Shown: positions 755 to 18,328, counted from the stretch's first letter. The stretch is DNA of 64,000 nt from Bacillota bacterium (GCA_021324295.1 JAJPJJ010000088.1:24902-88901); one strand, 5' to 3'. Numbers and translations are program-made. The notes: a model not told the origin generated them from the letters alone.

Positions 755-800
755 CTCGCGCACAGCATACTGGGCAGGCGACTGGCCGGGAGGGGAACCC

Positions 801-1145
801 GTGGTCTGGCGTCTGCTGCTCGTGGCCGAGCTCGGGAACGCGTTCGACTGGGCGACGACGCTCATCGGCGTCGGCGGGCTGCACCTCGTGGAGCTGAACC
901 CGCACGCGGGCCTGCTCATCCGGGCCGTGGGCGCGCTGTGGGGGATCACGCTGTTCAAGGCGGCCGTGGGCTTCGAGCTCGCCGGCATGGCCGCCGCGGC
1001 GGCGTGGCTCGGCGCCCGCCGGGACGGCCGCGCCTGCGCGCTGTGCCTCGTCGCGCTCGCGGCCGCCGGGGCGCTGCTGTGGTGGGTCGCGGCGGCCAAC
1101 GCGCAGACGCTCATCCTGTACTTCCGCTCGACGGCGGCGCGGTGA
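801..1145 (+). CDS. Small hypothetical integral membrane protein, about 114 aa.
   Basis: GTG start at 801 preceded by GGGAGGGG. The hydrophobic C-terminal two thirds have multiple TM helices. Its stop overlaps the next start (ATGA at 1143-1147). It is the only sensible part of ORF 9..1145. Confidence 0.4.
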   Translation: MVWRLLLVAELGNAFDWATTLIGVGGLHLVELNPHAGLLIRAVGALWGITLFKAAVGFELAGMAAAAAWLGARRDGRACALCLVALAAAGALLWWVAAANAQTLILYFRSTAAR

Positions 1146-2484: not shown

Positions 2485-2518
2485 GCTGAAGGCGCGTCTC
2501 CGACGCCGGGTCCGCGGC

Positions 2519-3433: not shown

Positions 3434-3437
3434 CCGC

Positions 3438-5699
3438 CTACGCCTCCTCGGGATCCAGCCGGGCGAGCGCCCGGCGGACGTGCTCGATCGTGACGCGCGG
3501 GGCGTCCTCGCTCAGCGCGATGACGCCGGCGATCCGGCACAGCTCCCGCAGGTCCCGGCCCGAGCGGCCGCCGGTGAGCGCGGCGACCTCCTCCGGCGTG
3601 GTCGTGGTCCTCGCGGGGAAGTGGCGCCGGAGGATCGCCGCCCGCTCTTCTGGCCCCGGCAGCGGGATCGCCACGTGATAGCTGAGCCGGCTGCGGACGG
3701 CCTGGTCGATCGCGTCCAAGTGGTTCGTGGCGCCCACCACGAACACGCCCGCAGCCGCGCCGCCCACGCCCTCGAGCTCCTGCAGGAACTGGTTGATCCG
3801 CTGGGTCGCGTCCTGCCCCGCGCCGGCGGCCGCCGCGCCGGGATCTGGGCGGCGCGAGGGCGCGACGCCGTCGAGCTCGTCGACGAACAGGATGCAGGGG
3901 GCCGCCTCGCGGGCCTGCCGGAACATGTCGCGGACGAGCTGCGTGCCCTCGCCGAGCCACATGGACGTGATGGCCGCGCCGGCGAACGCCAGGACCGGGC
4001 GGCCGGACTCGCCGGCCACGGCGCGGGCGATGAGCGTCTTGCCGGTCCCCGGCGGGCCGTAGAGGACCGCGCCGGCGGGCGGCGCCACCCCGAGCTCGCG
4101 GCCGACCTCGGGGTCGGTGATGAGGCGGACGAGCGTGCGCAGCTCGGCCATGATCCCGGGCGGCAGCACGAGGTCGCTGAAGCGCGCCTGCGCGATGCGG
4201 CTCGGTGCCGCCTGCCGGGTCGCGTGGCCGCCGGGCTCGGGGCGGATGCGGCGCAGGGCCAGCTCGAAGTGCGCGCGCGCGACCGCGGGCGCGCCCTCGG
4301 CCAGCGCCGCGAGGCCCGCCGCGCGGCACAGCTCGCGCAGGTCGCGCCCGCTCGCGCCCTGGGTCATGCGGGCGACCTCCTCCGGCGACGCCTGGGCGCG
4401 GGCCGGGAAGATGCGCCGCAGGATCTCGGCGCGCGCGGGCTCGTCGGGCAGCGGCACGGCCACGTGGTACCCGAGGCGGCTGCGGACCGCGGGGTCGATG
4501 TCGTCGAGCCGGTTGGACGCGCCCACCACGAACACGCCCGCGAGCGGGCCGGAGGCGCCCTCGAGCGCGTGCAGGAACTCGGCCATCCGCGCGCGGGCGT
4601 CCTGCGGCGCTCCCCCGCCCGCCGCGTCCGCGGCGCTGCGCGCCGGCGCCGCGCCGTCCAGCTCGTCGATGAACAGGACGCACGGCGCGGCCCGCCGGGC
4701 CTGCTCGAACACCGCGCGCACGAGCTGCGCGCCCTCGCCGACCCACATCGAGACGAGCTCGGCCCCGCTGAACGCCAGGGCGGCGCGCCCGGTCTCGCCG
4801 GCGATCGCCCGCGCGATCATGGTCTTGCCGGTCCCGGGCGGGCCGTAGAGGATGGCGCCCTGCGGGGGCTCGATCCCGAGCGCGGCGCCCGAGGCGGGAT
4901 CGCGCAGCAGGCGGATGAGCGCCTGGATCTCCAGGCGGGTGCGCTCGGGGAGCACGATGTCCGACAGGCGGAGCGTCGAGATCGCCGCGGACGTCGGCTC
5001 CCGCGTCACCCTCGGCGCGAGCGCGGAGACTTGGCGGCCCGCCGGCGCAGGCGCCGGCGCTGTGCGCATGGCGGCCGCGCCGCGCGCCGGACGCCTCCAC
5101 GAGGAGAGCGCGGCCGCCGAGGCGCCGAGGCACGCCAGCGCGACGGGCACGAAGACGACGAGGAGCACGTCCCCGGTCTGGTAGACGCGGTGCAGCGTGC
5201 CGGTCCTGACCGCGGCCACCCACAGGGCGGCCAGGAGCAGCGCGGCATGCCCGGCCTGCCGCGCCTCCCGGCGGCGCGGCCCCAGCCCGCTGAGCGCCCA
5301 CGACGCGGCGCACCAGCACGCGGCGGCCGCGTAGGGCGCGGCAACCGCAGCCGCGGCGCCGAGGGCCGCTCCGCTGGGGTCGACGGAGATCACCCGCAGG
5401 GCGTTGATCCACTCGACGCACAGCGCGAGCGCGCCGAACAGCACCCAGGCCGGCGCGCGCGAGCTCAGCATGGAGAGCAGTGCCCACGTGGACCCGAGCC
5501 ATGCCGCGAGCACCGAGCCGATCGCCCAGGCGCTTGCCGTGATCCACTCGGCGCGGTAGCCCTCCAGGCGCGCCACCGCGCCGCGGTACGTCAGCAGCAG
5601 GCAGACGACGGCCGAGACCGCGCACACCGCCGCGGTGCCGCGCACCGCCGGCCGGACGGCCGGCGCCTGCCGCATCCGTGTCATCGAGGCGATCCGCAT
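3438..5699 (-). CDS. Membrane-anchored tandem AAA+ ATPase, 753 aa, with two classic-clade AAA modules.
   Basis: The N-terminal roughly 250 aa are hydrophobic with multiple TM helices. Walker A GPPGTGKT occurs twice. Walker B is LFIDELD in the first module and LFVDELD in the second. SRH-like segments occur twice. The two modules are very similar to each other, indicating an internal duplication. Confidence 0.8.
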   Translation of the reverse strand: MRIASMTRMRQAPAVRPAVRGTAAVCAVSAVVCLLLTYRGAVARLEGYRAEWITASAWAIGSVLAAWLGSTWALLSMLSSRAPAWVLFGALALCVEWINALRVISVDPSGAALGAAAAVAAPYAAAACWCAASWALSGLGPRRREARQAGHAALLLAALWVAAVRTGTLHRVYQTGDVLLVVFVPVALACLGASAAALSSWRRPARGAAAMRTAPAPAPAGRQVSALAPRVTREPTSAAISTLRLSDIVLPERTRLEIQALIRLLRDPASGAALGIEPPQGAILYGPPGTGKTMIARAIAGETGRAALAFSGAELVSMWVGEGAQLVRAVFEQARRAAPCVLFIDELDGAAPARSAADAAGGGAPQDARARMAEFLHALEGASGPLAGVFVVGASNRLDDIDPAVRSRLGYHVAVPLPDEPARAEILRRIFPARAQASPEEVARMTQGASGRDLRELCRAAGLAALAEGAPAVARAHFELALRRIRPEPGGHATRQAAPSRIAQARFSDLVLPPGIMAELRTLVRLITDPEVGRELGVAPPAGAVLYGPPGTGKTLIARAVAGESGRPVLAFAGAAITSMWLGEGTQLVRDMFRQAREAAPCILFVDELDGVAPSRRPDPGAAAAGAGQDATQRINQFLQELEGVGGAAAGVFVVGATNHLDAIDQAVRSRLSYHVAIPLPGPEERAAILRRHFPARTTTTPEEVAALTGGRSGRDLRELCRIAGVIALSEDAPRVTIEHVRRALARLDPEEA

Positions 5700-5797
5700 C
5701 GCGGCCTCCGGCAGACAGCGTACGCGGGATGTCGGGAGCCGAAAGGCAAGACGCGTTCCGGCAGCGGCCGCCGCGCCGGCCGGTAGACTGGCCGGCG

Positions 5798-6631
5798 ATG
5801 CGTGCGCGCGCGTGCGTGATGCTGCTTGCGGCCGCCGCCGTCCTGCGGGTGGGCGCGCCCGCGGGCGCGGCGTCGGCGGACGCCCTGCTTAGCGCGGGCG
5901 TGGAGGCCTACCTGCGCGGCGCTCCCGTCCACGCCCTCGCGGACTTCGCGCTGGCCGCGCGCGCGGCGCCCCGCAGCGCCCTCGCGGCGCTGTGGGCCGG
6001 CGTGGCCGCGGTCGCCGCGGGCCGCATGCCGGAGGCGGCCGCGTGGTTCCGCGAGGCGCTTGCGAGGCCCCACAGCGCGGCGGAGGCCGGCGTTGCCGCG
6101 GCGTGGCTCCGCCGCCTGTCCGTCCTCGCCGCGCCGCCGGCGCCCGCCAGGCGGACGTGGCTCGAGATCGCCGCGCTGGCCCGGGCGAGCAATCCGCGGC
6201 TCACCGCGGGGCAGGCCCGGTGGGTGGGGCAGGCGGTCGTGGCCGCCGCCCAACGCGCGGGGATCGACCCGTGGCTGCTGGCCTCGGTGGTGTACGTCGA
6301 GAGCCGGTTCAACCACCAGTCCGTGAGCTGGGCGGGCGCCGTGGGGCTCGGCCAGCTCATGCCGCAGACGGCCGCGGCTGCGGGCGTGGACGCCCGCGAT
6401 CCGTGGGGGAACCTCGTCGGGGCGGCCCGCGTGCTGCGGTGGGACTACGACGAGTTCCGCAGCTGGCCGCTCGCGCTCGCCGCGTACAACGCCGGCGCCG
6501 ACGCGGTGCGGCGGTACGGCGGGATCCCGCCGTACGCGGAGACGCGCTGGTACGTCGCTGCGGTGCTATACGTTTACCGGCAGAGTGTCCAAACCAGCAC
6601 GCCGCCATGGTATAGTGTGTTTGGGCAATGA
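5798..6631 (+). CDS. Lytic transglycosylase (SLT domain) with a signal peptide.
   Basis: Contains ESRFNHQSVSWAGAVGLGQLMP...AAYNAGADAVRRYGGIPPYAETRWYV. ATG at 5798 (MRARACVMLLAAAAVL) gives a signal peptide. The upstream part of ORF 5678.. is unlikely to be translated. Confidence 0.8.
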   Translation: MRARACVMLLAAAAVLRVGAPAGAASADALLSAGVEAYLRGAPVHALADFALAARAAPRSALAALWAGVAAVAAGRMPEAAAWFREALARPHSAAEAGVAAAWLRRLSVLAAPPAPARRTWLEIAALARASNPRLTAGQARWVGQAVVAAAQRAGIDPWLLASVVYVESRFNHQSVSWAGAVGLGQLMPQTAAAAGVDARDPWGNLVGAARVLRWDYDEFRSWPLALAAYNAGADAVRRYGGIPPYAETRWYVAAVLYVYRQSVQTSTPPWYSVFGQ

Positions 6632-6652
6632 GCCGCAACTGGAGGAGATCCT

Positions 6653-6892
6653 GTGGCCACTGCGCGTGAGGAACTGCATCGACTGGCTGACGTCCTTCCT
6701 GCTCAGGCAGTGGAAGAGTTGGCCGAGGTCGGTCGGGTGCTGGAGCGCCAAGCCGGTGCAGGCGAGATCGAGGAGGTCACGGATCCCGAGGAAGCCGAGA
6801 TCGTGCGGCAGGCGCTGGACGACACGGCGAGCGAACGCGATCTCGCGCCAGAGGAAGCCAAGGCCTACCTGGACCAGCGCCGCGGCGCGTAG
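6653..6892 (+). CDS. Putative type II antitoxin, 79 aa, acidic.
   Basis: Small acidic protein immediately upstream of a ParE/RelE-like toxin with a 3-nt gap. The family is not recognised by motif. Confidence 0.5.
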   Translation: MATAREELHRLADVLPAQAVEELAEVGRVLERQAGAGEIEEVTDPEEAEIVRQALDDTASERDLAPEEAKAYLDQRRGA

Positions 6893-6895
6893 CCG

Positions 6896-7222
6896 GTGGC
6901 AAGTGCAGTCCGGTTTGGGCGCGCTGCGCTCGACGATATTGCACGATACGAAGCTTGGCGCGGCCGCCAGAATCCCGGATGGCGCCCGATCGGCTCCGAT
7001 CTGATCGATGCGATTGTCCGGGTCGCCAGCCGGTATCAATCGTTTGAGTCGATCCCGGCGCCACTCCTTTCCGTTCACGGGCAGGCCGCACGGCTGAAGC
7101 GACTTCTCGTTCCTGTCCGCTCAAAGGTATTTCGCGTCTATGTGGGGCCGGGCCGCGAGCCCGGAGCCATCAGTGTCCGAAGGGTGCTCCACCCCTCGCG
7201 TCGGCCGATTGATCGCGGCTGA
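6896..7222 (+). CDS. parE: Type II toxin, ParE/RelE family, 108 aa.
   Basis: GTG start. The C-terminal segment KVFRVYVGPGREPGAISVRRVLHPSRR matches the ParE/RelE fold motif pattern (YRIxY...I.RI.H). Confidence 0.65.
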   Translation: MASAVRFGRAALDDIARYEAWRGRQNPGWRPIGSDLIDAIVRVASRYQSFESIPAPLLSVHGQAARLKRLLVPVRSKVFRVYVGPGREPGAISVRRVLHPSRRPIDRG

Positions 7223-7228
7223 GTCAAC

Positions 7229-7253
7229 GGCCGTCGCCTAAAGGCGACGGCTT
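7229..7253 (+). terminator. Stem-loop GCCGTCGCC-TAAA-GGCGACGGC, 8 nt after the parE stop, followed by only TT.
   Basis: Perfect 9-bp inverted repeat with a 4-nt loop, seen directly in the sequence. There is no long U tail. Confidence 0.4.
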
Positions 7254-7392
7254 GCAGCTACTCGTAGCCGAAGCCACGAGCGCCACATCAGGCTGGTTGA
7301 CAGGCAGCCCACCCGCCCCAGGTCTACCGGGACCGGCACGGTACGCGGCGGCGATGTTGCGGGCGGCAGCGGCAGTCCCCGCGCCTCGCGTC

Positions 7393-8880
7393 TTATGGTC
7401 TTGATCGGCGACCCAAACGATCGCCGTTCGCCCCGCCAGGCGTCGGTCCGGAGTGTGCCCGGCTAGCCGCGCGCCCCGCGGCCTCGATGCGCTGCGTGAC
7501 GGCCCCGTTGATGGAGACCTGCACCGTCATCGGCACGGGCCCGGTGATCGTCTGGGTGACGCGCCGGCCGGGCGGGTGCGTCTCCTGCGAGTCCGTGACG
7601 GTGGCGCCGTCGGGCCCGACCGCGACGACGCGGACGAGCTGGCGCGGGGCGCCGCCCGGCACCGTGATCCGCAGCCGGATCGTCGCGCCGCCGCCCGCGT
7701 ACCGGATGGAGTGCGACAGCCACCGGCTCTTCCACGAGAGCCCGATCGCCCGGAGGTCCTCGCGCAGGGAGGCGACGATCCACGCGGCCCGGAGCCGGCG
7801 GATCGCCCGCCGCTCCAGCTCGCGCATGCGGTCGGGCGTCACCCCGTGCCGCCCGAGCTCACGCGCGGCCTCCTCGCCGCCGTCGAGCCCGTAGCGGCAG
7901 CGGATCACGGCCTGCTCGACCGGGGGCAGGACCCGGCGGACCAGCGCGCGCACGCTCGACGCGAGGTGTTCGCGCGCGGCCGTGCCGACGAACAGCTCCT
8001 CAGGCGACGGCGACTGCGGGTCGGCCTGCGTGTCGGCCACGGAGCGCTCGTCGTCCTCGTCCCCGCCGTGCCCGGCGGGCGCCTGCAGAGACACGGTGTC
8101 CACGGCGCCGCGCAGGGCGTCGTGCACCGCGCGCGGGCTCACGCCGATGGCCGCGGCCACCTCCTCCGGCGTCGGGCCGCGGCCCAGCTCCTGCGCGAGG
8201 CGCGCCTCGGCCCGCCGGATCCTGCGCAGGCGCTCCACGGCGTGCATCGGAATCCGGATGGTCCGTCCCTGCTCGGCGGTGGCGTGCTGCATGCTCTGCT
8301 GGATCCAGTACATCGCGTACGTGCTGAACCGGAACCCGCGCCGCCAGTCGAACTTCTCGACGGCCTTGATGAGCCCGGCGTTCGCCTCCTGGATGAGGTC
8401 GAGCGTCGGCAGGCCGCTCCACCTCGCGGCGCGGAACGCCGCGCTCGCGGCGAGCCGCAGGTTCGACTGGACCATGCGCTCGAACGCCGCCCGGTCGCCC
8501 GCCTCGATGCGCTTGGCGAGCTCGACTTCCTCGGCCGGCGCGAGCAGCGGGTACGCGCTGATCTCGCGCAGGTACAGCCGCAGCGAGTCGTCCGCGGGCG
8601 CATCGCCGTCCGGCGGATGCGCGGCCGGGAGCGCCGCGGCGTGCTCGGGGGAGAGCGTCTTCGCGCCGAGCTCGCCGAGGGCGTCCACGCTCGCCCGGTA
8701 GGCCTCCGGGTCCACCTCGTCGGGGCAGGGCACCGCGGCCAGCACGTCCGCGGTCGTGACCGCCCCGCCGGCCCGAGCGCGCCGGAGCAGCGAGGCGGCC
8801 CGGGACGCGGGGGCCGCGCGGCGCTGCGGCTGCGCGCCCGCGGGCGGCGCGGTCACGCGCTGTCCTCGCTCCATCCCCAT
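7393..8880 (-). CDS. Sigma-70 family RNA polymerase sigma factor (regions 1.2-4) with an extra C-terminal domain of about 130 aa.
   Basis: Region 2 is DLIQEANAGLIKAVEKFDWRRGFRFSTYAMYWIQQSM. Region 3 includes RIPMH. Region 4 is LPPVEQAVIRCRYGLDGG...RMRELERRAIRRLR. A non-sigma tail follows, ...RLRITVPGG...TQTITGPVPMTVQVSINGAVTQ. Confidence 0.75.
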   Translation of the reverse strand: MGMERGQRVTAPPAGAQPQRRAAPASRAASLLRRARAGGAVTTADVLAAVPCPDEVDPEAYRASVDALGELGAKTLSPEHAAALPAAHPPDGDAPADDSLRLYLREISAYPLLAPAEEVELAKRIEAGDRAAFERMVQSNLRLAASAAFRAARWSGLPTLDLIQEANAGLIKAVEKFDWRRGFRFSTYAMYWIQQSMQHATAEQGRTIRIPMHAVERLRRIRRAEARLAQELGRGPTPEEVAAAIGVSPRAVHDALRGAVDTVSLQAPAGHGGDEDDERSVADTQADPQSPSPEELFVGTAAREHLASSVRALVRRVLPPVEQAVIRCRYGLDGGEEAARELGRHGVTPDRMRELERRAIRRLRAAWIVASLREDLRAIGLSWKSRWLSHSIRYAGGGATIRLRITVPGGAPRQLVRVVAVGPDGATVTDSQETHPPGRRVTQTITGPVPMTVQVSINGAVTQRIEAAGRAASRAHSGPTPGGANGDRLGRRSRP

Positions 8881-9887
8881 GGGTCGCTCTCCGGGATATC
8901 GTCGTGCGTGCGCACCTTTGGCGGGCGCGGCGCCGGGCGCTGCTCGGCGGCCGCGGGCACCGGGACGATCTCGTCGGGCGAGGCCGGCGCGCCCGCGAGG
9001 ACGGCGTCGACCGCCTGGGCGGCGTCGCGGTGCACGGCGAGCGTGCGGTCCCGGCGCACCTCCACGGCGCAGCCGATGATCGGCGGCTCGAGCCGCCGCG
9101 GGCGGCCCCCGTCGGAGGACGGCTGTCCGACGAGCCCCGCGAGCTCGGGGTTGTGGACGATGTCGCCGAGCCCCTCGCCGTGCGCGGTGGCGAGCAGGCG
9201 CACGCCGCGGCGGGCGATGGTGCGGGCCGCGTCCGCCTCCCGGCGGGTCGTGATCTCGTCCACGACGACGACCTCCGGGAAGTGGTTGCGGACCGCGATC
9301 AGCATGATGTCGTACTGCGTGGCCGGCGCCGGCGCGCTGGGGCCCGGCACCTGCAGGCGCCTGGCCATCCCGATCGCCGGGTGCGGCACGACCCCGTCGC
9401 CGCCGATCTCGTTGTGGGAGTCGACCACCACGACCGCGGTGCCGAGCGCCTCGCTGAGGATCCGCGTGCAGTCGCGCAGCAGCGTCGTCTTCCCCGAGCC
9501 CGGCCGGCCGATCAGCAGGACCGACTCGCCGGTGTCGAGCAGGACGCGCCGCAGCGGCTCCGCCACGCCGGTGAGGTGGCGGCCGAGGCGGACCGTGACC
9601 CCCACCGGATCGCCGTACCGGTCGCGCACCAGGCTGAGCCGGTGCAGGGTCCCCTCCACGCCGGCGCGGTCGTCGCGCTCGAAGGCACCCACGCTCCCGA
9701 CGACGAACAGGATCTCCTCTTTGACGATCGGCATCGGGTCGAGCACCCGGAACCCGGCCGCGAACCGCGCCACCGGCGGCCGGCCGATGTCGAGCGCGAG
9801 CTCTACGAGGTCAGGCCCGAGAGACCCGACATACCCGGCGACCCTCGGGGGGAGGTGGCGGAGCAGGCGGGAGAGGTCGGGGTCCAT
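8853..9887 (-). CDS. SpoIIIAA / R3H-domain-like P-loop ATPase.
   Basis: Walker A LLIGRPGSGKTTLLRD. Walker B-like VVVVDE...IT at the end of the domain. It overlaps the sigma gene start by about 27 nt. Confidence 0.5.
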   Translation of the reverse strand: MDPDLSRLLRHLPPRVAGYVGSLGPDLVELALDIGRPPVARFAAGFRVLDPMPIVKEEILFVVGSVGAFERDDRAGVEGTLHRLSLVRDRYGDPVGVTVRLGRHLTGVAEPLRRVLLDTGESVLLIGRPGSGKTTLLRDCTRILSEALGTAVVVVDSHNEIGGDGVVPHPAIGMARRLQVPGPSAPAPATQYDIMLIAVRNHFPEVVVVDEITTRREADAARTIARRGVRLLATAHGEGLGDIVHNPELAGLVGQPSSDGGRPRRLEPPIIGCAVEVRRDRTLAVHRDAAQAVDAVLAGAPASPDEIVPVPAAAEQRPAPRPPKVRTHDDIPESDPWGWSEDSA

Positions 9888-9915
9888 ACGCCGCCACCAG
9901 ACAGACCCTTGCCAC

Positions 9916-10521
9916 CTACGGCAGACGTCTGCCGTGGGTGGCAGGGGTCTGTCTGCTGTAGATCCGGTCGTCCAGCTTCTCGAGCACGATGCACCGGACG
10001 AGGCCGCTCTGGATGGTCTGCGGGTGCTTGCCGCGGTGTCTGGCGATCTCCCGCACGCTCCAGCCGGCGAGGTGGAGGCGGTAGTCCTCCCACATCTCCT
10101 CCTCGGTCCGAGGGACGCTGTAGCCGGCCATCCGGGCCACCTGTCGCCCGGAGACCCCGGCCGCCTCGCCGATCTGGTTGAAGAACTGCTCGTGGTCCGC
10201 GGCCGCCGCCCCCGGGTGCGCGGCCTGCCAGGCGCGGTAGGCCGCGCGCAGGGCCGTGTAGCAGTCGCTGTACGCCGCCGCGGCCTCGCGCCGCAGCGAC
10301 GCGACGCGCCGGCGCGCCATCCTCCTCTTCCTCACCGCGAGCCTGTAGAGGTACAGCGCCCTGGCGAACTGGTGCCGCGCCCGCTGGGCGATCCTGCGCG
10401 CCTCGACCGACGCGGCCGTGGACTGGACGGCCGCGCGCACGAGCTCGGCGCACCGCGCCGCGTCCGCCCGGAGGGCGTCCGCGGCGGCCGGTGGATCCGC
10501 GAGCGCGGGCCGCTCCGGCAC
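9916..10521 (-). CDS. Hypothetical HTH protein with a sigma-region-4-like C-terminus.
   Basis: The segment WSVREIARHRGKHPQTIQSGLVRC resembles a helix-turn-helix. No further family call is possible. Confidence 0.4.
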   Translation of the reverse strand: MPERPALADPPAAADALRADAARCAELVRAAVQSTAASVEARRIAQRARHQFARALYLYRLAVRKRRMARRRVASLRREAAAAYSDCYTALRAAYRAWQAAHPGAAAADHEQFFNQIGEAAGVSGRQVARMAGYSVPRTEEEMWEDYRLHLAGWSVREIARHRGKHPQTIQSGLVRCIVLEKLDDRIYSRQTPATHGRRLP

Positions 10522-10524
10522 CGC

Positions 10525-11823
10525 CTACCTCCGCGCCGTCCGGCCGGCCGCGCGGTGGCGCGCGCGCCGCTGGTGGTCGCTGGCCACGGCGTGGTGCGCC
10601 TCGGCCAGCATGTCCTTCAGCCTCGCGAGGTCGCGGCGGGCGAGGTGCGGGTCGCGGTAGATCCGGGCGCGCCAGGCGAACGCGAGGAGGCCGGCCCAGA
10701 GCGTGTCGAGGGGCGACCACAGGAGCTTCGCCTGCTCGACCATGTACTCGGCCGCCTCGTGCTCGGCCCACTCGTTGATCCGCTCGAGGACGCCGGTGAA
10801 CTTCGCGACGTGGTTCGCGAGCAGGGCTTTGAGCTCGCTCAGGTTGCGCCGGACGTCGTACTTGTCGATCTGGGCGGCGAACAGGTTGAGCGCGGTCGCC
10901 GCGTGCGCCGACTCGTCGTCCTCGTCGGAGGCCGCCGGGGCCGGGGCCGGCGCGGCCCGCTGCCCGTCCGCGGCCGGCAGCGCCAGCGGGAGGCCGAGCT
11001 CCACGGCCTGCTTCTGCACCGCGGTGCGCGTGACGCCCTGGTCCGAGGCGATCGCGTTCACCACCGCGGTCGGCACGAAGCCGTGCGCCTTCGCCGCGTC
11101 GCGCAGGCGGCGCTCCGCCTCGGCCTTCTGCTCCGCGGTGCGGTCCTGGAAGACGTTCTTGACGGCGTCGTAGACGATCGCGGCGTGGACGCCGGACTGC
11201 GGGGCCGCCCACTCGGCCCACCCCATCGCGTCGCGGTCGCCCTCGTGCGCCTCGCGGTGCCGCTGCGCGAGGATGCGGAAGGTCGTCGCGCACTCCCCGG
11301 CGGTGAGGCGCTGCCCCTGCGGGGCGTTGAAGTAGACGAACAGCAGCTCGGGCGGCGGGTCCCCGTACATCGGATGGCGCTTGTAGGCGGGCGCGATGAG
11401 CTGGGCCGGCACGTGGGTCATGCCGGCCTCCTGCGCCGCCATCGCGCGCATCGCGCCGTCCACGACCACGTTGCTGGAGCCCCCGTCCGGCCGCGCCAGC
11501 ACCTTGATCGGATCGAGCCCGCAGGCGCGGAAGATCTCGTCCGGCTCCAGATCCGGCGAGGCCTCGCGCGCCGCGGCGATGAGCGACCGCAGCGCGTGGA
11601 TCGTGTCGCTGATCGCCTCCCGGCTGCGGCGCAGCCCCACGGCCAGCCTGAGGCCGCGGAACGTCAGCTCCCGCTCCTCGTCCTCCGGGATGTCCCGGAA
11701 GAGCTTGCGGAGCGACATGTCCATCCGCAGCATCTCGATCGCGAGCGCAAGCCCGTCCTTCACGACGACATACGGCTGGCCGATGCGCCGCTGCGCGAGC
11801 TTCGGGCTGACCTGTGCAGGCAT
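10525..11823 (-). CDS. ParB/Srx-like nuclease-domain protein, about 433 aa.
   Basis: The central segment IKVLARPDGGSSNVVVDGAMRAMAAQEAGMTHVPAQLI resembles the ParB N-terminal domain (hhDGhHRhhAA...G...hP). Start chosen at MPAQVSPKL at 11823. The upstream part of the ORF is R-rich. Confidence 0.5.
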   Translation of the reverse strand: MPAQVSPKLAQRRIGQPYVVVKDGLALAIEMLRMDMSLRKLFRDIPEDEERELTFRGLRLAVGLRRSREAISDTIHALRSLIAAAREASPDLEPDEIFRACGLDPIKVLARPDGGSSNVVVDGAMRAMAAQEAGMTHVPAQLIAPAYKRHPMYGDPPPELLFVYFNAPQGQRLTAGECATTFRILAQRHREAHEGDRDAMGWAEWAAPQSGVHAAIVYDAVKNVFQDRTAEQKAEAERRLRDAAKAHGFVPTAVVNAIASDQGVTRTAVQKQAVELGLPLALPAADGQRAAPAPAPAASDEDDESAHAATALNLFAAQIDKYDVRRNLSELKALLANHVAKFTGVLERINEWAEHEAAEYMVEQAKLLWSPLDTLWAGLLAFAWRARIYRDPHLARRDLARLKDMLAEAHHAVASDHQRRARHRAAGRTARR

Positions 11824-12015
11824 GGCCACGGCTGCCACCACCCCCCTTGATGGATGGAGCGCTTCAGTTCGGCGCTCAGTGTAGGGCGGCGCCCGTGCGG
11901 GCCAAGAGAAACCCGGTTCACGCAGCAGGGCCGTCCGGGACACTGCGCCCCCGCCCGGGAGGCGGGCCGAGCAGGGCCATTGTGCGGGAACGGCCGCCCG
12001 CTGTCTATGACGAGC

Positions 12016-12059
12016 GCATATGCCTAGGCATATGCCTGCGCATATGCCTAGGCATATGC
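12016..12059. repeat. Two tandem copies of a perfect 20-bp palindrome, GCATATGCCTAGGCATATGC, separated by CTGC (24-bp period).
   Basis: Read directly. Each unit is exactly self-complementary. It lies about 190 bp upstream of the ParB-like gene start and just downstream of the Crp-family gene. Its A+T content is high relative to this genome. Confidence 0.85.
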
Positions 12060-12183
12060 GCAGGCATAATTCGGACCCGTGTCCATGGCACAGGATGGGG
12101 GTGTGACGCCGGCGAGGTGGGGCGCTGTCGTGTCTGGCCGGCGCAGGCCGCCGCGGACCGGCTCAGGCGGCCTGCGCCGGCAG

Positions 12184-12951
12184 TCAGGAGATGCCGGGGT
12201 CGCCGGTCGCGACTCTGGCGATGGCCGCCGGGTCCATTAGCAGGATCCGGTGCCCGCTAGCGCTGGCGATCCCGGCCTGGCGCCAGGCCGCGAAGACCCG
12301 GCTCACCGTGGCCTGGTTGAGACAGGCGATCTCCGCGAGATCCTGCTGCGAGGCGTCCAGCACCAGCGGACGGTCCGGGGGGCCTGCCCGCATGGCGTGG
12401 CGGGCGATCTCCATCACCGCCATCGCCAGGCGCTGGTCGGAGCGCCTGGTGAGCAGCTCCGCCATCCGGTCGTACGCCGCGAGCGCCGCCCGGGCGGCGA
12501 CCCGCAGGCCGGCCATGGCGACCGCGGGGTGCCTGCCGGCGAGGTGCGCCCACGTCAGGGCGTCCCACCACAGCGACTCGCACCCGGTGAGCGCCTCGGC
12601 GGAGTACGGGTATTCCGTGCCGTCCAGCACGGCGGCGCCGCCGACCACCACGCCCGCGGACGCGACCCTGAGGGCGATCCGCGTGCCGTCGGGCTCGGTC
12701 CGCACCAGCTTGACCAGGCCGGACGTCACGACGTAGAGGCGCGACGCCGGGGCCCCCTGCCGGAACAGCGCCTGCCCGCGGCCGGCGCGGGAGAGCCGGG
12801 CCGCGGCCGAGACCTCGGCGATGGCGGCCGGAGGCAGCCCGTCAAACAGCGGGAGCGATGCGGCACCCGCTGGACAGGCGCCGCGGGGCGCGCCTGCGCC
12901 GCTGTGAATGTGAATTGGAGGCCGTGCTGATACACCGTCTTGGGTCTGCAT
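12184..12951 (-). CDS. Crp/Fnr family transcriptional regulator.
   Basis: cNMP-binding-like N-domain. C-terminal HTH QQDLAEIACLNQATVSRVFAAWRQAGI. Start at MQTQDG at 12951. The upstream part of the ORF is junk. Confidence 0.7.
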   Translation of the reverse strand: MQTQDGVSARPPIHIHSGAGAPRGACPAGAASLPLFDGLPPAAIAEVSAAARLSRAGRGQALFRQGAPASRLYVVTSGLVKLVRTEPDGTRIALRVASAGVVVGGAAVLDGTEYPYSAEALTGCESLWWDALTWAHLAGRHPAVAMAGLRVAARAALAAYDRMAELLTRRSDQRLAMAVMEIARHAMRAGPPDRPLVLDASQQDLAEIACLNQATVSRVFAAWRQAGIASASGHRILLMDPAAIARVATGDPGIS

Positions 12952-13665
12952 GGCGGCGATCCACCGCAGAGCAGGCCGCGCCGGCCGGCGCCTCCCGCGG
13001 CGCGGCCCGGATGACGTTCCCTCCTTTCGCGTCTGCGTCGCGGCGGGGGCGGAAGCGAGGCCGGACGCGCCCGCGGCGATCGGCCGCCGCACATCGGCTG
13101 GCGCCGGCGGAGCTGCGCGTCCGGGATCAGACCGCCGTCGGAGAGTAGGGATCCGCGCAGAAGCGCATGGGACTGCCGCGGGGAGATCACAAGGCAGGTG
13201 CTTCTTCGGTGCTTCACCGCTGCGCCCCCCGTTCGTCCAGCCGTGCAGCCCGCCGCAGCAAAAAGAAGAGGGCCGCCCCGGCCGTCGAGCAGGGGCAACC
13301 CCTTTCGGCAGCGCAGCCGACCGCGCGACGTCCACGCCCCCCGCGCGGTCCTGTCGCTTTGCGGCCCCGGATTGCTCCGGGTGTGCTCTTATCGAGAGGT
13401 CTCGAGCGTCACTCTGTCAGTTGTGCCAATCACGTTACACGCCCCGCCGGCGGCTGTCAATGCAAGTTGCGTATAAGGTGCGCGGAAGTACCGTTTAGCA
13501 CCGATAGAAGTTGGCCGCACCGGGCACCATATGCGGACGGCGTGACCTGCTTCCACAGGGGAATCCCCGGGCTTCAGTCCGGCGAGGACGTCAACGCGGG
13601 TTGCCCCGGCCCGCTGCGGCCGCTCGCATACACTGACGCCACACCATGGTGCGCGGAGGTCGCCG

Positions 13666-14757
13666 ATGCGGGTCGTGGCGGTCGGTGTCCTGATCGCGGC
13701 CCTTGCCAGCGCGGCGTGGGCCGCGCCGGTTACGTTGAGTGCGCAGGCGCTCCGGGAAAGCCCCGGCGTCGTCGCGATCGACGGGCAGAACGAGACGGCG
13801 GTCCAGTTCTGCGACGACGTGCGGTGGATCACGTTCAAGGCTCCGTGGCTCCACGCGCAGATCAGCCAGTACGACCGGCGGGTGCTCCTGCTGGACGCGG
13901 CCTCGCAGTCCGGCACGGCGGCGCTGTCGGTCTGGCTGGAGGGGCAGGGCGCTCCGCTGCAGCTCCTCGTGCGCGTGTCCCCGACAACCCTCGAGAACCA
14001 CCTGTACTTCGTGTCGTGCGGCGCCGCCCAGGCGGCCGCGCGCGCCGGACAGGAGGCCGGCGCGCGGTCCCCGGCCCCGGCCGCTCCCGCGGCCCCGGCG
14101 GCGGCACGGCCCGCGCAGCCCAGCGCGCATCCGGCGCCCGCCGCGGGCCCGGCGCCGGCCGGCGGCGCTGCGGCGTGGGACGCGTTTGTCCCGACGCTGT
14201 CGGCGCGCCAGTGGCAGCTCCTCCAGGCGCTCATCGCCTCGCCGACCGCGGACGCGTACGCGGCGTTCACCGCGTCGCTGTCTGCTGACCAGGCCGCGGT
14301 CTGGAGCCGGCTCGCCCCGTCCGCGCACCTGACTCCGCCGGCGGCGGAGCGGTCCGCGGCGCCGCAGGGCGGGCCCGCCTCGGGACCCGCGCAGGCCTGG
14401 CAGCCGGCGCCGGCGTGGCTCGTCTTCCAGGCCTCGGTCGTCGCGCCCAAGGGCGGCGGCGGCGCGCTCGTCCCGTACACGGTGACCAACACCGGGACGG
14501 TCGAGGTCGTGCTCGACGCGGTCCGCCTCCAGGTCCTGGACGCGAACGGCGCGCCGGTCCGCGATGTGCGGGTGGCGCGCCGCGACACGAGCGGGTTCGA
14601 CGGGCGGGTGCCGCCGGGCGGCGCGGAGTCCGGCACGATCGCCCTCCCGGCCGGCGTCCAGGGGTCCGTCACGATCCGCTGGCCGGCGGTGGCGATCGCC
14701 GAGAGCGCGGAGGGGATCTCCACGTACGCGCTGAGCCAGGCCGTCGAGGTCCCGTAG
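13666..14757 (+). CDS. Secreted hypothetical protein with an Ala/Pro-rich linker, 363 aa.
   Basis: Signal peptide MRVVAVGVLIAALASAAWAAP. Low-complexity AP-rich middle. Beta-rich C-terminal domain. Confidence 0.55.
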   Translation: MRVVAVGVLIAALASAAWAAPVTLSAQALRESPGVVAIDGQNETAVQFCDDVRWITFKAPWLHAQISQYDRRVLLLDAASQSGTAALSVWLEGQGAPLQLLVRVSPTTLENHLYFVSCGAAQAAARAGQEAGARSPAPAAPAAPAAARPAQPSAHPAPAAGPAPAGGAAAWDAFVPTLSARQWQLLQALIASPTADAYAAFTASLSADQAAVWSRLAPSAHLTPPAAERSAAPQGGPASGPAQAWQPAPAWLVFQASVVAPKGGGGALVPYTVTNTGTVEVVLDAVRLQVLDANGAPVRDVRVARRDTSGFDGRVPPGGAESGTIALPAGVQGSVTIRWPAVAIAESAEGISTYALSQAVEVP

Positions 14758-14765
14758 GCCGGGCG

Positions 14766-15278
14766 GTGGTCGACGTCACGATCGGGATCGACCCGGGAGT
14801 GGGCGGCGCCGTGGCCGCGCTGGACGGGCGCGGCAGGCTCGTCGCGCTCGACGACACCCCGACCATCATGGTGCGCTCCGGCCGGAGGCAGCGGCGCGCG
14901 TACGACGTCGCGGCCATGCGCGCCGCGGTGTCGCGCTGCGCCGCGGGCGGGACCGCGGCGCACGCCGTCATCGAGCACCAGCGGGCCATGCCCAAGCAGG
15001 GTGTCGCGAGCATGTTCAGCACGGGATACGGATACGGGCTGTGGGTGGGGCTGCTCGCCGGGCTCGGCATTCCGCACACGGTGGTCGAGCCGCAGCGGTG
15101 GCAGGCGGCGATGCTCCTGGGCCGCGGCGATCCGAAAGCCCGGGCGCTCCTCGCCGCGTCTCGGCTGTTCCCCTCGATCGTGATCCCGAGGACCCGCCAC
15201 GGCCGCGCCGACGCGCTGCTGCTGGCGGAGTACGGGCGCCGGCTGCTGTCAGGCATCGCGCGGGAGGCGGCGTCGTGA
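14766..15278 (+). CDS. RuvC-like Holliday junction resolvase (phage-type).
   Basis: GTG start at 14766. The segment VDVTIGIDPGVGGAVAALDGRGRLVALDD matches the RuvC N-terminal catalytic motif (IGIDPG). It lies 9 nt after the upstream stop. Confidence 0.55.
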   Translation: MVDVTIGIDPGVGGAVAALDGRGRLVALDDTPTIMVRSGRRQRRAYDVAAMRAAVSRCAAGGTAAHAVIEHQRAMPKQGVASMFSTGYGYGLWVGLLAGLGIPHTVVEPQRWQAAMLLGRGDPKARALLAASRLFPSIVIPRTRHGRADALLLAEYGRRLLSGIAREAAS

Positions 15279-15946
15279 CGCGCGCCGCGGTCGCAGCCGC
15301 GATCGGCGCGGGGCTGCTGGCGCTGTGGGGCGCGCCCTCATCGGCGCAGGCGCCGGCCGGCACGACGAACGCGGTGCTGAGCTACGTCGACGCGGCGGGC
15401 GGCCACGTGAGCGTGGTCCGGCACTGGACGGGTCCGGGCACCGGGCAGGACACGCAGGTGACGCCGTTCACGCCCTACTTCTGGGACGGCTGCCTGCCGT
15501 TCCAGCAGGGCGCGCTCATGCTGCTGCTCACGAGCCCGGCGGGCTACCCAGCGCCGCAGCTCACGAGCTCCGCGGCGTACACGGCCCAGTACCTCGCCAG
15601 GCTGGGGCAGGCGGCGGCGTCGGCGCTCAATCAGGCGGCGGCGTCCCTGCCGCCGTCCCAGGCGCAGGCCGCGGGCAACCTGGAGGCGCTCGCGGCGCGG
15701 CTCGCCACGCCGGGCGACCCGGCCTATGAGATCCTGAAGGCCGCTCCGCTCGTGAACTCCCTCAGCGCGTACGAGGACTACGGGTACGCGGTGTTCATGT
15801 TCGTGCGGTGGAAGTGGATCTACGTCCCGTTCCCCGTGCCGTCGCCGTGCGCGCAGGTCGACATCGTGTCGGTTCCGGAGGGGTACGGGATCCCGTTCGT
15901 CGCGCGGGCGCGGCCGTCCTGGACCGAGGCCCGCTGGCGCCCGTAG
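15275..15946 (+). CDS. Secreted hypothetical protein.
   Basis: GTG at 15275 overlaps the upstream stop (GTGA). Signal peptide VTRAAVAAAIGAGLLALWGAPSSAQA. Confidence 0.5.
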   Translation: MTRAAVAAAIGAGLLALWGAPSSAQAPAGTTNAVLSYVDAAGGHVSVVRHWTGPGTGQDTQVTPFTPYFWDGCLPFQQGALMLLLTSPAGYPAPQLTSSAAYTAQYLARLGQAAASALNQAAASLPPSQAQAAGNLEALAARLATPGDPAYEILKAAPLVNSLSAYEDYGYAVFMFVRWKWIYVPFPVPSPCAQVDIVSVPEGYGIPFVARARPSWTEARWRP

Positions 15947-16485
15947 TGCCGGCGGCGCGCGGGTGGCCCGCGCTGGCGGCCGCCGCGGCCGTGATCGCGG
16001 CGGGCGTGCCCGCGGCGGCCGCCGGCCCCCAGGCGCGGCAGGCCGAGGTGCGGGCCGCGGGAGGCGTGGTCGTGCGGTACCCGGCGCTGTGGCGGGCCGC
16101 GGTTGCCGAGGGCGGCCGCGTCGTCGTGATCGCGGGGCCGCGGGGAGGCAAGACGCGCGCGGCCGCCGCGATCATGGTCGTGCGCGGGGGCGCCGACAGC
16201 GCGGCGCTGCTTGCGAGCGCCGCGCGCGGCCTGGGCGCGCGGGCGCCCCTCAAGCTCCTCGGGGAGCGGCGCCTCGGGCCGGGCCGCGCGGCGCGCTACT
16301 ACGTGCGGGGCGAGGGCGCCGCGTCGGAGTACGTGATGGTCGGCGCCGCGGCGGGCCGCGGCTGGGCGGTGATCATGGTGGCCGTCGATCCGGTGTCGGA
16401 CCCGGCGCTGCGCACGCGGGCCGCGGTGTTTCAGGCCATCCTCATGGACGTGCGGATGCCGGCTGGAGGCGGCGGGGAGGGGTGA
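15946..16485 (+). CDS. Hypothetical exported protein.
   Basis: GTG at 15946 overlaps the upstream TAG. The N-terminus is hydrophobic. It is translationally coupled to the next gene (ATGA at 16483-16487). Confidence 0.45.
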   Translation: MPAARGWPALAAAAAVIAAGVPAAAAGPQARQAEVRAAGGVVVRYPALWRAAVAEGGRVVVIAGPRGGKTRAAAAIMVVRGGADSAALLASAARGLGARAPLKLLGERRLGPGRAARYYVRGEGAASEYVMVGAAAGRGWAVIMVAVDPVSDPALRTRAAVFQAILMDVRMPAGGGGEG

Positions 16486-16724
16486 TGCGGGTGGACGTGC
16501 AGGCCAATGACGCGTGGCGGCGCGGCGTCGAGCGGCGGAGGCGGCTGCTCGGTGTGCGGGACGTGGCGGAGTACCTGGGGCTCAGCAAGGACACGGTGCA
16601 CGAGATGTGCCGGAAGCACCGGATCCCGCACCTCAAGATCGGCGGCCGGATCCGGTTCGAGCCGGAGGAGTTCTACCGGTGGGTGGAGACGCACCGACGC
16701 GGGTATCAGCCGCATCGCGTGTGA
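16485..16724 (+). CDS. xis: Excisionase-family HTH DNA-binding protein.
   Basis: The segment VAEYLGLSKDTVHEMCRKHRIPHLKIGGRIRFEPEEF is the excisionase/MerR-like helix-turn-helix 17 signature. Confidence 0.65.
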   Translation: MRVDVQANDAWRRGVERRRRLLGVRDVAEYLGLSKDTVHEMCRKHRIPHLKIGGRIRFEPEEFYRWVETHRRGYQPHRV

Positions 16725-16789
16725 CGCTGGGATCCGGCGTTGCCGATCTCGTTCGGTACACGCGAGACAGGTGTAAGGGGGAGCACCGT

Positions 16790-17056
16790 ATGACTCAAGT
16801 CGATGAGCTGCGCCATGCCCAGATGGCGGTGGCGGTGTTAGATCCGAATCAGCTCGTTAGCGACGGACTCATGACCGTGCCCGAGGTGGCAGCGTTTCTT
16901 CGGCTCAGCCGAAGCACTGTCTACGCCTTGATGGAGAAGGGCGCGCTGCCGTATGTCCGGATCGGCGCCGCCCGCCGTGTCCCGCGGCGCGCCGTGATTG
17001 ACCTGGCTGCTGCCAACCTTCGGGGGGAGTTCCACGATCGGACCGCAAACTACTGA
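16790..17056 (+). CDS. Second excisionase-family HTH DNA-binding protein.
   Basis: The segment MTVPEVAAFLRLSRSTVYALMEKGALPYVRIGAARRVPRRAV carries the same signature. Confidence 0.6.
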   Translation: MTQVDELRHAQMAVAVLDPNQLVSDGLMTVPEVAAFLRLSRSTVYALMEKGALPYVRIGAARRVPRRAVIDLAAANLRGEFHDRTANY

Positions 17057-17091
17057 GTGCGTCGCGATGACCAGTGTGGAGGTGAACCCCC

Positions 17092-18234
17092 GTGGGCGGC
17101 AGGCGCGGCCGCGGCGAAGGGACGGTGTTCAGACGCGGAGATGGGCTGTGGGTAGGCGCCTTGACCTTTGGGTACGATTCTCGCGGGAAACGCCGCAGAC
17201 AAGTGGTGTACGGGGCCACCAAGGCGGAGGTGCTGGAGCGTCTTGCGCGGCTGCGGGTGAGCGCCCTGGACGGCACAATGGTCCATCCACAGCGCCTCAC
17301 GGTGGCGGGGTATTTGGCGCGGTGGCTGGAAGACACGGTCCGCACCGGGATGCGGGAGAGCACGTATCAGATGTACGAGATAACCGTTCGATGCCACATC
17401 GCGCCGTCCATTGGCGGGGTTCAGCTGCCAAGGGTCGGCGCCATGCACGTTCACGCCATGCTCGCGGAGATGGAACGGAATGGGGCGTCGCCGCGTCAGC
17501 GTCAGATTGCCTTCAAGGTGTTCCGCCGGGCGATGCGCCAGGCGGTGCGCTGGAAGATGATCCCGCACGACCCGTGCGCCGCGGTCACCGCCCCGCGGGT
17601 TCCGCATAGGGAGATGCAGGTGCTGACGCCTGAGCAGGCCAGGCGCTTCCTCGCGGCTGCATGCGAGGACAGATTGTATGGGCTCTATGCCGTCCTGTTG
17701 GGCTGCGGGCTGCGCCTCGGGGAAGCGCTCGGCTTGACATGGCCGGACGTGGATCTGGAGCGAGGCACGATCACGGTGCGGCGGCAGCTGTGTGACGTGA
17801 ACGGCAGGCTCTGGCTGCAGGAGCCGAAGACGGAGCGCTCTCGAAGGACCATAGACCTCCCGGCATTTGTTGCCGATGCACTGCGGGACCACCAACAGCG
17901 AATGAAGACCGAGGGTCACCTCCTCAACGACCGGTTGCTCGTGTTTGTTGACACCGACGGCAAACCTATTCGCCGGACCAATCTCCGGAAACGCTCCTTC
18001 CTCCCGCTGCTTCGCCGGGCGGGGCTGCCGCGCATCAGGCTGCACGACCTGCGTCACACCGCTGCGACGCTGCATCTCTTGCAGGGGACGCACCCGTCTG
18101 TCGTCCAGCACATGCTCGGTCATGCCAGGGTAAGCATCACGCTGGACGTGTACTCGCACGTCCTCCCGACGCTCGGCAAGGAGGCGGCCCAGCGGATCGA
18201 CGCGCTGCTGCGGGCGCCGCGGCCGGGCCGGTGA
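17092..18234 (+). CDS. int: Tyrosine site-specific integrase (phage integrase family).
   Basis: GTG start. C-terminal catalytic region includes RLHDLRHTAATLHL...HMLGHARVSITLDVYSHV with the R..HxxR..Y pattern. Confidence 0.85.
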   Translation: MGGRRGRGEGTVFRRGDGLWVGALTFGYDSRGKRRRQVVYGATKAEVLERLARLRVSALDGTMVHPQRLTVAGYLARWLEDTVRTGMRESTYQMYEITVRCHIAPSIGGVQLPRVGAMHVHAMLAEMERNGASPRQRQIAFKVFRRAMRQAVRWKMIPHDPCAAVTAPRVPHREMQVLTPEQARRFLAAACEDRLYGLYAVLLGCGLRLGEALGLTWPDVDLERGTITVRRQLCDVNGRLWLQEPKTERSRRTIDLPAFVADALRDHQQRMKTEGHLLNDRLLVFVDTDGKPIRRTNLRKRSFLPLLRRAGLPRIRLHDLRHTAATLHLLQGTHPSVVQHMLGHARVSITLDVYSHVLPTLGKEAAQRIDALLRAPRPGR

Positions 18235-18328
18235 GGCTGGACTGTAGCCAAACTGTAGCCAAACGGGCAGATAACGGGCTACGGAAGCGCACGTCTGTGG
18301 ACGCCGAAACGTGGCGGAAGCCCAATAA

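Follow-up and report, generated by a model that had tools for sequence, protein, structure and literature searches.

The 64,000-nucleotide stretch of Bacillota bacterium DNA analyzed here (GCA_021324295.1, JAJPJJ010000088.1:24902-88901; called the window below, at its full length) contains a tandem array of palindromes for which the reading as a protein-binding operator array is well supported; it would control the regulatory operon of an integrative conjugative element (ICE). The operator reading is favored because the core of the array is conserved in a diverged relative, the array abuts a conserved promoter, and analogous arrays are present in distant relatives of the operon. Binding by a protein, the identity of that protein, and an activating effect are what we infer; mildly favored as the binder is the Crp/Fnr-family regulator encoded immediately upstream, which would switch on the operon through the array (probability roughly 0.4). 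The array and the genes next to it are listed here, with gene content taken from public gene calls on the identical source contig (∼29 kb) together with Pfam.

12014-12071, no strand assigned: whole array with its GC flanks and a degenerate fifth unit, alternatively read as four overlapping TATGC-N4-GCATA sites
12016-12035 and 12040-12059, no strand assigned: a pair of perfect palindromes of 20 bp, GCATATGCCTAGGCATATGC, together making up four GCATATGC units with a 12-bp period
12184-12951, minus strand: Crp/Fnr-family regulator of 255 amino acids (aa), with cNMP-binding and HTH_Crp_2 domains
10525-11823, minus strand: first operon gene, 432 aa, predicted ParB/KorB-fold N-terminal domain, helix-turn-helix (HTH), linker, and all-alpha C-terminal domain
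9916-10521, minus strand: second operon gene, 201 aa, C-terminal HTH_38-like helix-turn-helix
8853-9887, minus strand: SpoIIIAA-like P-loop ATPase, 344 aa (Pfam PF19568, E = 7e-17)
7393-8880, minus strand: sigma-70-family sigma factor, 495 aa, with regions 1.2, 2, 3, and 4

The order on the minus strand is thus the Crp-family gene, the array, the 432-aa ParB-like protein, the 201-aa HTH_38 protein, the ATPase, and the sigma factor. The original prediction named the same cluster, and its content holds, the ATPase, sigma factor, and HTH_38 protein by Pfam and the ParB/KorB-like first gene by predicted fold; the array is intergenic, and the distance to the cluster, predicted as about 190 bp, measures 193 bp from the ATG at 11823. 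Also as predicted, GCATATGCCTAGGCATATGC is exactly self-complementary and occurs twice with a 24-bp period, and the pair is matched in none of 100 dinucleotide-preserving shuffles of the window; a copy with two mismatches lies in register between the two. The tract is indeed AT-rich for this genome, with a GC content of 52% across 12014-12071 and of 56% in a 100-bp interval around it, compared with 72% for the whole window.

The array can be read at two scales. Four copies of the 8-bp palindrome GCATATGC, at 12016, 12028, 12040, and 12052, keep a strict 12-bp register and are separated by CTAG, CTGC, and CTAG, in that order. Beyond the fourth copy come GCAG and, at 12064-12071, a degenerate fifth unit that reads GCATAATT (minus strand, AATTATGC). 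Alternatively, the same DNA forms four perfect overlapping TATGC-N4-GCATA 14-mers at 12019, 12031, 12043, and 12055, whose centers differ (CTAG, CTGC, CTAG, and GCAG, respectively). The overlaps of the units create a perfect 38-bp palindrome at 12031-12068, and perfect 22-nucleotide (nt) arms at 12014-12035 and 12040-12061 are 4 nt apart. There are no copies of GCATATGC elsewhere in the 64 kb (0.42 expected), and neither GCATATGC (with up to one mismatch) nor TATGC-N4-GCATA forms a second cluster in the window plus a further 9.2 kb of the element. The array motif is therefore a single cluster in the ∼27.6 kb of element that is visible, which extends as far as the coupling-protein gene. An interspersed repeat family, which had been named in advance as an outcome that speaks against a regulatory site, is ruled out within the 73 kb seen. 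A literature search for GCATATGC as an operator returned just primers and NdeI sites. The array was also considered as coding DNA, and a stop-free frame does cross it (reading ...LRICLGICAGICLGICA...), but start codons are absent from this frame above 11943, and none of the indels that separate the window from its close relative is a multiple of three.

That relative, L010, is the single close one in the databases, with a ParB-like protein 85% identical and a Crp-like protein 82% identical to those of the window. Comparison of the two intergenic regions places the conserved sequence at the array and at the first of two promoter-like sites downstream of it.

11979-12007, minus strand: promoter-like site P1, TAGACA-17-CACAAT, with the -35 hexamer starting 8 bp from the array
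11878-11913, minus strand: promoter-like site P2, GGTTTCTC-TTGGCC-N16-TACACT, 82 nt upstream of the start codon

The 24-bp core GCGCATATGCCTAGGCATATGCGC is unchanged in L010, and the block GCGCATATGCCTAGGCATATGCGC-(C/T)CGTCAT-(A/C)GACAG is nearly invariant between the two loci, with CACAAT following exactly 17 bp on; the remaining intergenic region of L010 has accumulated substitutions and indels of 11, 14, and 14 bp. P1 is the sole sigma-70-like match in 11750-13750 (shuffle mean, 0.1), and its L010 counterpart, TCGACA-17-CACAAT, keeps the hexamers and a spacer that is still 17 bp long, with diverged sequence. L010 has two perfect GCATATGC units and degenerate outer units in the same 12-bp register, and correspondingly two TATGC-N4-GCATA sites, with centers CTGC and CTAG. 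The window differs by exactly one extra 24-bp unit, a simple tandem duplication. The distal half-unit is also retained in L010, as AACTATGC, and at the distal end of the array in both loci it is the inward-facing half-site alone that is kept. With a transcription start placed near 11972 on the basis of P1, the four sites are centered at approximately -53.5, -65.5, -77.5, and -89.5, and the two 20-mers at -53.5 and -77.5.

P2 is conserved more widely. The pattern TTGGSB-N15-17-TAYMCY is present at 7 of 10 related loci, in spite of protein identities of just 25 to 44%, and the window, L010, L147, L148, L151, L152, and L155 share the consensus GGTTTCnC-TTGGGT-N16/17-TAYACT. P2 could be the main promoter of the operon or the site of a conserved factor; the idea that it is a general promoter for the element's own sigma factor was dropped, since the motif is unique within the visible element.

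Analogous arrays are found among eight distant homologue loci, which together with the window and L010 make up a set of 10. The operon core recurs in the distant loci, with the ParB-like gene followed by a homologue of the second gene, and the SpoIIIAA-like ATPase and sigma factor are present in the three whose contig extends far enough. The upstream neighbor is variable. In five of the loci it is a LuxR-type regulator, which is intact in L147, L148, L155, and L157 and a remnant in L151, and in three of the five (L147, L148, and L151) tandem repeats lie between it and the operon. L147 has two copies of a 20-mer, TTCCCACC(G/C)CAAAACGTGGG, at a 23-bp period; L148 has four copies of a 21-mer, CCTCGTAAAAATGTCGAGCCC, at 20 to 25 bp; and L151 has four copies of a 16-bp palindrome, CTACTGGTACCAGTAG, at 21 to 24 bp. 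L152, L154, and L156 have no upstream regulator, and none of the three shows a significant array ahead of the ParB-like gene. The best 16-mer tandem match is reached in 0 to 3 of 200 shuffles for the window, L010, L147, L148, and L151, in 5 of 200 for L156, which is borderline, and often in the remaining loci, such that significant arrays are present at five of seven loci with an upstream regulator and none of three without. The distance from array to P2 varies from 89 to 320 bp among related loci, and the recognition helices of the LuxR-type regulators differ from locus to locus. Tandem AT-centered palindromic units spaced about two helical turns apart upstream of the operon are therefore a trait of the family, with a sequence that is specific to each element.

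The Crp/Fnr-family regulator, mildly favored as the binder, is encoded co-directionally with the operon, and its gene ends 113 bp from the array. Three further features lie around it.

13432-13460, minus strand: promoter-like site TTGACA-17-TAACGT, upstream of the riboswitch-like leader (TTGACA ... TAATGT in L010)
13303-13396, minus strand: riboswitch-like aptamer of the cyclic di-GMP-I (c-di-GMP-I; GEMM-I) clan in the leader of the Crp-family gene, with the UAU variant as best model
12137-12181, minus strand: perfect 16-nt inverted repeat directly after the Crp-family stop codon, partly kept in L010

The aptamer scores 56.1 bits (E ∼1e-11), under the gathering score of 65.9, with all of its pairs standard; its counterpart in L010 (1727-1820) scores 58.7 bits, and the leader is highly conserved. 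A terminator-like hairpin with a T run is located 3' of the aptamer, at 13271-13283. The inverted repeat after the stop codon, which is not followed by a U tract, may be a terminator or a stabilizer.

In the proposed mechanism, dimers of the Crp/Fnr-family regulator would bind the TATGC-N4-GCATA sites, and the overlap of adjacent sites would leave room for two dimers 24 bp apart, on the two CTAG-centered 20-mers. The bound dimers would activate the weak promoter P1. Gating of the regulator itself would come from two sources, the c-di-GMP-type riboswitch-like leader of its gene and the nucleotide-binding domain of the protein, giving a cascade in which a small-molecule signal could act through the Crp-like regulator, the array, and P1 on the master operon that codes for the sigma factor and ParB-like protein, and from there on the conjugation genes.

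Several observations favor a Crp-like binder. Its gene is placed directly ahead of the array, and across the 10 loci significant arrays go with an upstream regulator (five of seven versus none of three). The sites have a 5-N4-5 geometry like those of FNR, all four are perfect despite their differing centers, and the retention of the inward-facing half-site alone at the distal end fits the same geometry. Between the window and L010, which have the operator in common, the HTH region of the regulator does not differ at all, whereas the helix of the HTH_38 protein differs at 4 of 11 positions. The array has a different sequence where a LuxR-type response regulator replaces the upstream neighbor, and the ParB-like recognition helix is nearly identical in the window and L147, at which the arrays are unrelated. 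The original prediction had placed a Crp/Fnr target last among its candidates; it is now mildly favored, by virtue of the 5-N4-5 geometry, the identical HTH, and the way that arrays change with the regulator. Of the dimeric-repressor operator that it also proposed, the operator array is well supported, through the conservation, the promoter, and the analogous arrays.

Other points weigh against a Crp-like binder. The box recognized by CRP is TGTGA-N6-TCACA and that of FNR is TTGAT-N4-ATCAA, and on direct reading the array matches neither, bearing out the mismatch to the CRP box that had been stated at the outset. Compared with these known sites, the array shares twofold-symmetric 5-bp half-sites, a variable 4-bp center, a weak sigma-70-like promoter downstream, and an adjacent Crp-family gene; it departs from them in a half-site sequence outside the known consensus, in having four overlapping sites at 12-bp steps, and in its noncanonical centers. 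The recognition-helix region of the regulator is NQATVSR, with QATVSR in place of the RETVGR of CRP (the FNR motif is ETISR), and it lacks the Glu and Arg of the CRP/FNR motif; because of this departure, nothing known predicts the site of the Crp-like protein. Its closest homologue outside the elements, P0004 (34% identity), has a canonical E--SR helix and is uninformative about the array site. Crp-type proteins activate from -41.5, or from -61.5 plus whole helical turns, and the centers at about -53.5 and -77.5, counted from a start that is inferred, fall outside the canonical positions of both class I and class II. The association of arrays with an upstream regulator comes from 10 loci, with a one-sided Fisher p of ∼0.08, and weakens if the borderline L156 is counted as array-bearing. 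The ∼24-bp period across different regulator families would fit a common binder better, and the gene of a BisD/KorB-like protein is directly downstream of the array, the characterized BisD and KorB relatives loading at palindromes near their own genes. Moreover, the sequence specificity of KorB is set outside the HTH, which weakens the argument from the ParB-like recognition helix. Exact identity with a vapBC operator, described below, is also left unexplained by a Crp-like binder.

The ParB-fold protein encoded just downstream is the most serious rival, and by analogy the array could be a bisS- or OB-type loading or operator site for it, a strong alternative that we rate a little below the Crp-like binder. 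Searches with the 432-aa sequence alone (Pfam, PHROGs, and PDB) gave no match, and an exhaustive HMMER search yielded 17 distant homologues of 22 to 44% identity. An AlphaFold2 model built from the homologue alignment has a predicted local distance difference test (pLDDT) score of 82, and a Foldseek comparison with the PDB ranks ParB, KorB, and Noc at the top (E = 7e-5 to 1e-3; probability, 1.0), such that the label ParB-like appears right at the level of the predicted fold. The profile of the protein matches KorA-type HTH domains (E = 6e-4), with a KorA/HTH_23-like HTH at residues ∼250-276, and in the model a disordered linker (284-323) is followed by long helices (324-431) forming an all-alpha C-terminal domain. 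GxxR survives as G123-A-M-R126, and most of the 18 homologues read DGAxR at this motif. Solved ParB proteins used for comparison read VAGERRxRAA...ENLQRE; here, of the two boxes that bind cytidine triphosphate (CTP) in ParB, GERRxR reads GAMRAM and ENxxR is altered to N-xx-HG-x-R, and nucleotide binding is uncertain because of these two alterations.

One argument for the ParB-fold protein comes from BisD of the Pseudomonas element ICEclc, a ParB-like clamp using CTP that activates the transfer-competence promoters of its ICE; it binds two 23-bp palindromes (bisS) on ICEclc and then slides, acting at a distance (PMC12409273). Both systems are ICE-borne, with a long perfect palindrome in two copies close to the gene, and the predicted layout of the window protein, from a ParB-like part with GxxR through an HTH and a disordered linker to an alpha-helical C-terminal domain, is BisD-like, including the extra C-terminal domain behind a long linker that is described for BisD. 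The differences are that bisS is a contiguous 23-bp palindrome, GAGCTATCCCCnGGGGATAGCTC, with copies inside genes and 2 kb apart rather than in tandem before a promoter; that BisD has 550 aa versus 432 aa here; and that BisD has the partner BisC, where the window operon co-encodes a sigma factor and an ATPase. The second precedent is KorB of RK2, which is loaded onto DNA at palindromic OB sites and reaches distal promoters by sliding (PMC11790492). KorB is likewise a ParB-fold regulator with palindromic operators on a conjugative element and is among the best predicted fold matches, and the HTH of the window protein resembles those of the KorA type. OB differs from the array in being a 13-bp palindrome, TTTAGCGGCTAAA, and it is dispersed at many RK2 promoters; the window motif is confined to one cluster in the ∼27.6 kb, so dispersal of the KorB-OB kind is not borne out by the window and the adjoining 9.2 kb. 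A further difference from RK2 is that no KorA or IncC (ParA) partner was found here and the GERRxR box is not kept.

Two modes of action could be envisaged for this protein. ParB-fold dimers on the 20-bp palindromes would repress or activate P1 directly, in a KorB-like manner beside the -35 hexamer, or clamps would close and slide to P2 and into the element, like BisD and KorB. A sliding protein could tolerate the variable distance between array and P2, the array sits beside the gene of the protein that would bind it and has no second copy in the ∼27.6 kb of element, and arrays with a ∼24-bp period recur irrespective of the family of the upstream regulator. Counting against the ParB-fold protein are its almost unchanged recognition helix (TRTAVQKQA in the window and TRTAIQKQA in L147) at loci with unrelated arrays; the four central base pairs of the sites, which are unconserved, whereas parS, OB, and bisS are contiguous palindromes; the altered GERRxR and ENxxR boxes; and the lack of a significant array upstream of its gene in the loci without an upstream regulator. 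Likewise, neither a ParA gene nor another copy of the site turned up in the sequence seen. A partition centromere, which the original prediction offered together with a KorB-type operator array, is not supported, leaving the KorB/BisD-type site as the part of that proposal that is a serious rival: no ParA/CbiA-type gene is among those called on the ∼29 kb of source contig (or in the ∼27.6 kb of element), the ATPase of the operon being SpoIIIAA-like; the element is integrated; and the site resembles neither OB nor, on direct reading of 12014-12071, the 16-bp parS consensus, TGTTNCACGTGAAACA.

Whether the motif recurs elsewhere was asked in the original prediction, and the answer was unforeseen. 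The exact 20-mer was searched for in 186,000 species-representative genomes, the JGI metagenomes, and IMG/VR, and was found at 3, 10, and 1 loci, respectively. In 10 of these 13 other nonviral public loci (8 of them distinct), the 20-mer is 10 to 30 bp upstream of vapB, which is followed by a PIN-domain vapC. The VapB proteins are of the AbrB/MazE type, with the motif HVRLFKNGRNQA(V/L)RIPREFELPG (Pfam MazE_antitoxin, E = 5e-5), and the hosts are from several phyla and include Rhodoferax and an Acidobacteriaceae bacterium. GCATATGCCTAGGCATATGC is evidently, from its placement, the operator of this family of vapB (AbrB-type)-vapC loci (L001, L003, L135 to L138, and L140 to L143, in which the usual flank is TA).

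The array could accordingly be pictured as a pair of operators for VapB-type antitoxins of the AbrB/MazE fold, with a VapB-VapC complex from the element or its host binding the GCATATGC units, and the master operon would then respond to the antitoxin level. This is improbable, in spite of the identity of the 20-mer with the operator-like palindrome of the family in 10 of the 13 loci and of the strict 12-bp register of the 8-bp palindrome, which suits one small dimer per unit. No VapB-like open reading frame (ORF) was found in the window, L004, or L010 to L012 by tblastn or with a hidden Markov model of the family on six-frame translations, and no VapB-like gene is among those called on the 29 kb of source contig. 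The flanks are GC in the window and TA in the vapBC loci, which carry one copy of the 20-mer rather than two in tandem; vapBC operators overlap the core promoter, and the array is ∼190 bp from the gene and upstream of the -35 hexamer. The outermost units of the array are half-sites, which is more in keeping with a 14-bp site than with an 8-bp unit, and with only ∼10^6 possible 20-bp palindromes, the chance of a match to some operator family is not negligible. The identity could be coincidental, or it could reflect a real link to an antitoxin supplied in trans, for which we see rather long odds. It is similarly a long shot that the master operon is wired to a toxin-antitoxin system, such that the level of a labile antitoxin from the host or an unseen part of the element sets the timing of the sigma factor and the ParB-like regulator; if so, loss of the antitoxin under stress would trigger transfer.

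The shorter motif is common in viral sequences, and more than 120 IMG/VR contigs contain GCATATGC-N4-GCATATGC. These phage arrays were considered as a clue to the binder and set aside, as the neighboring proteins are unrelated to those of the window. In 12 of 16 high-GC IMG/VR contigs, the array is inside a DUF1376-like gene. Such arrays are carried by L015, L026, L036, L040, L070, L072, and L077 (61 to 67% GC) and by L078, L088, L099, L101, L106, L112, and L114 in the same GC range; they consist of 2 to 5 GCATATGC units with a 12-bp period, encode CERICERIC-type repeats, and adjoin a conserved GAATAAGACATGGACATGGAAGCATCG stretch and a proline-coding purine run, an arrangement that recalls the lambda origin inside gene O. 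A second group comprises 49 low-GC IMG/VR loci (∼35% GC; for example, L021, L023, and L053) with a conserved CACAnATnT(4-6 nt)GCATATGC-N4-GCATATGC-TGAcGGATAAAC. The 39%-GC viral contig L013 has four copies of the exact 20-mer at 7311-7492 with a 54-bp period, in an ORF with 18-residue repeats, EHMPRHMLDQPKHESVLT.

It is very unlikely that the palindromes act as RNA, with a hairpin in the read-through transcript of the Crp-family gene terminating transcription or stabilizing its 3' end. The array is 113 nt downstream of the Crp-family stop codon, and the minus-strand fold is a 22-bp stem of -47.7 kcal/mol (z = -7). However, there is no U tract, the hairpin is followed by CUCGUCAUAG, and a terminator scan did not report the array; a separate hairpin is already present at the Crp-family stop codon; and the arrays of the distant loci are tandem copies of weak 4- to 7-bp stems. 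L010 keeps the sequence but has merely a 10-bp stem, and recognition by a protein is indicated because it is the sequence, not the pairing, that is exactly conserved. Rfam matches on the array (mir-297, mir-466, and RsmW) are far under their gathering scores and merely reflect the palindrome. An iteron-type origin is not supported, as there is no Rep-like gene near the array by Pfam and gene calls, the lowest 100-bp GC is 56%, without an AT-rich region for unwinding, and the repeats are palindromic.

The left third of the window (1-18300), together with L144 1-9200, is part of the ICE. Its integration end is marked by the following features.

17092-18234, plus strand: tyrosine integrase, at the element end
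16485-16724 and 16790-17056: two HTH_17 excisionase-like genes beside the integrase

The junction with host DNA is near 18.25 to 18.39 kb, adjoining a luciferase-like monooxygenase gene, and host genes begin at ∼18.3 kb. Four genes of unknown type also lie on the plus strand of the element. Further element genes in the window code for a lytic transglycosylase, a double AAA+ ATPase, and a NERD (nuclease-like) protein, and genes for a VirB4-like ATPase and a TraG/VirD4-type coupling protein are located just outside the window start. Among plasmids and phages there is no meaningful megablast match, and a tblastn search for the ParB-like protein gave no homologue on plasmids. A small protein encoded at 14766-15278 (plus strand) and at L152 3785-4282 is conserved in the element family; its start, VxIGIDPGVxGAVAxxD, resembles a motif of RuvC/RNase-H-type resolvases, with a faint DUF460 match alone in Pfam. 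ARAGORN reports a 95-nt tRNA-Thr(GGU) at 12303-12397 on the minus strand, inside the Crp-family coding sequence, which is probably a false positive, and the idea of an attachment site there was dropped.

As a genetic switch, an operator array of this type is of an ordinary kind, and its value is in marking where a rare and poorly known family of conjugative elements is controlled, with just two close and ∼17 distant variants among billions of proteins. It is moderately interesting for that family, for the combination of a BisD-like protein and a sigma factor, for the riboswitch-like leader, and for the identity with the vapBC operator. Knowing the binder would show whether a ParB-type clamp, in the manner of ICEclc and RK2, or a classical activator is at work, and would explain the vapBC identity. 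In the master operon, a sigma factor and a SpoIIIAA-like ATPase are combined with a ParB-fold protein of the BisD/KorB kind, and the input to the operon appears to come from sensors that can replace one another, a riboswitch-gated Crp-like protein in this element and two-component response regulators in its relatives.

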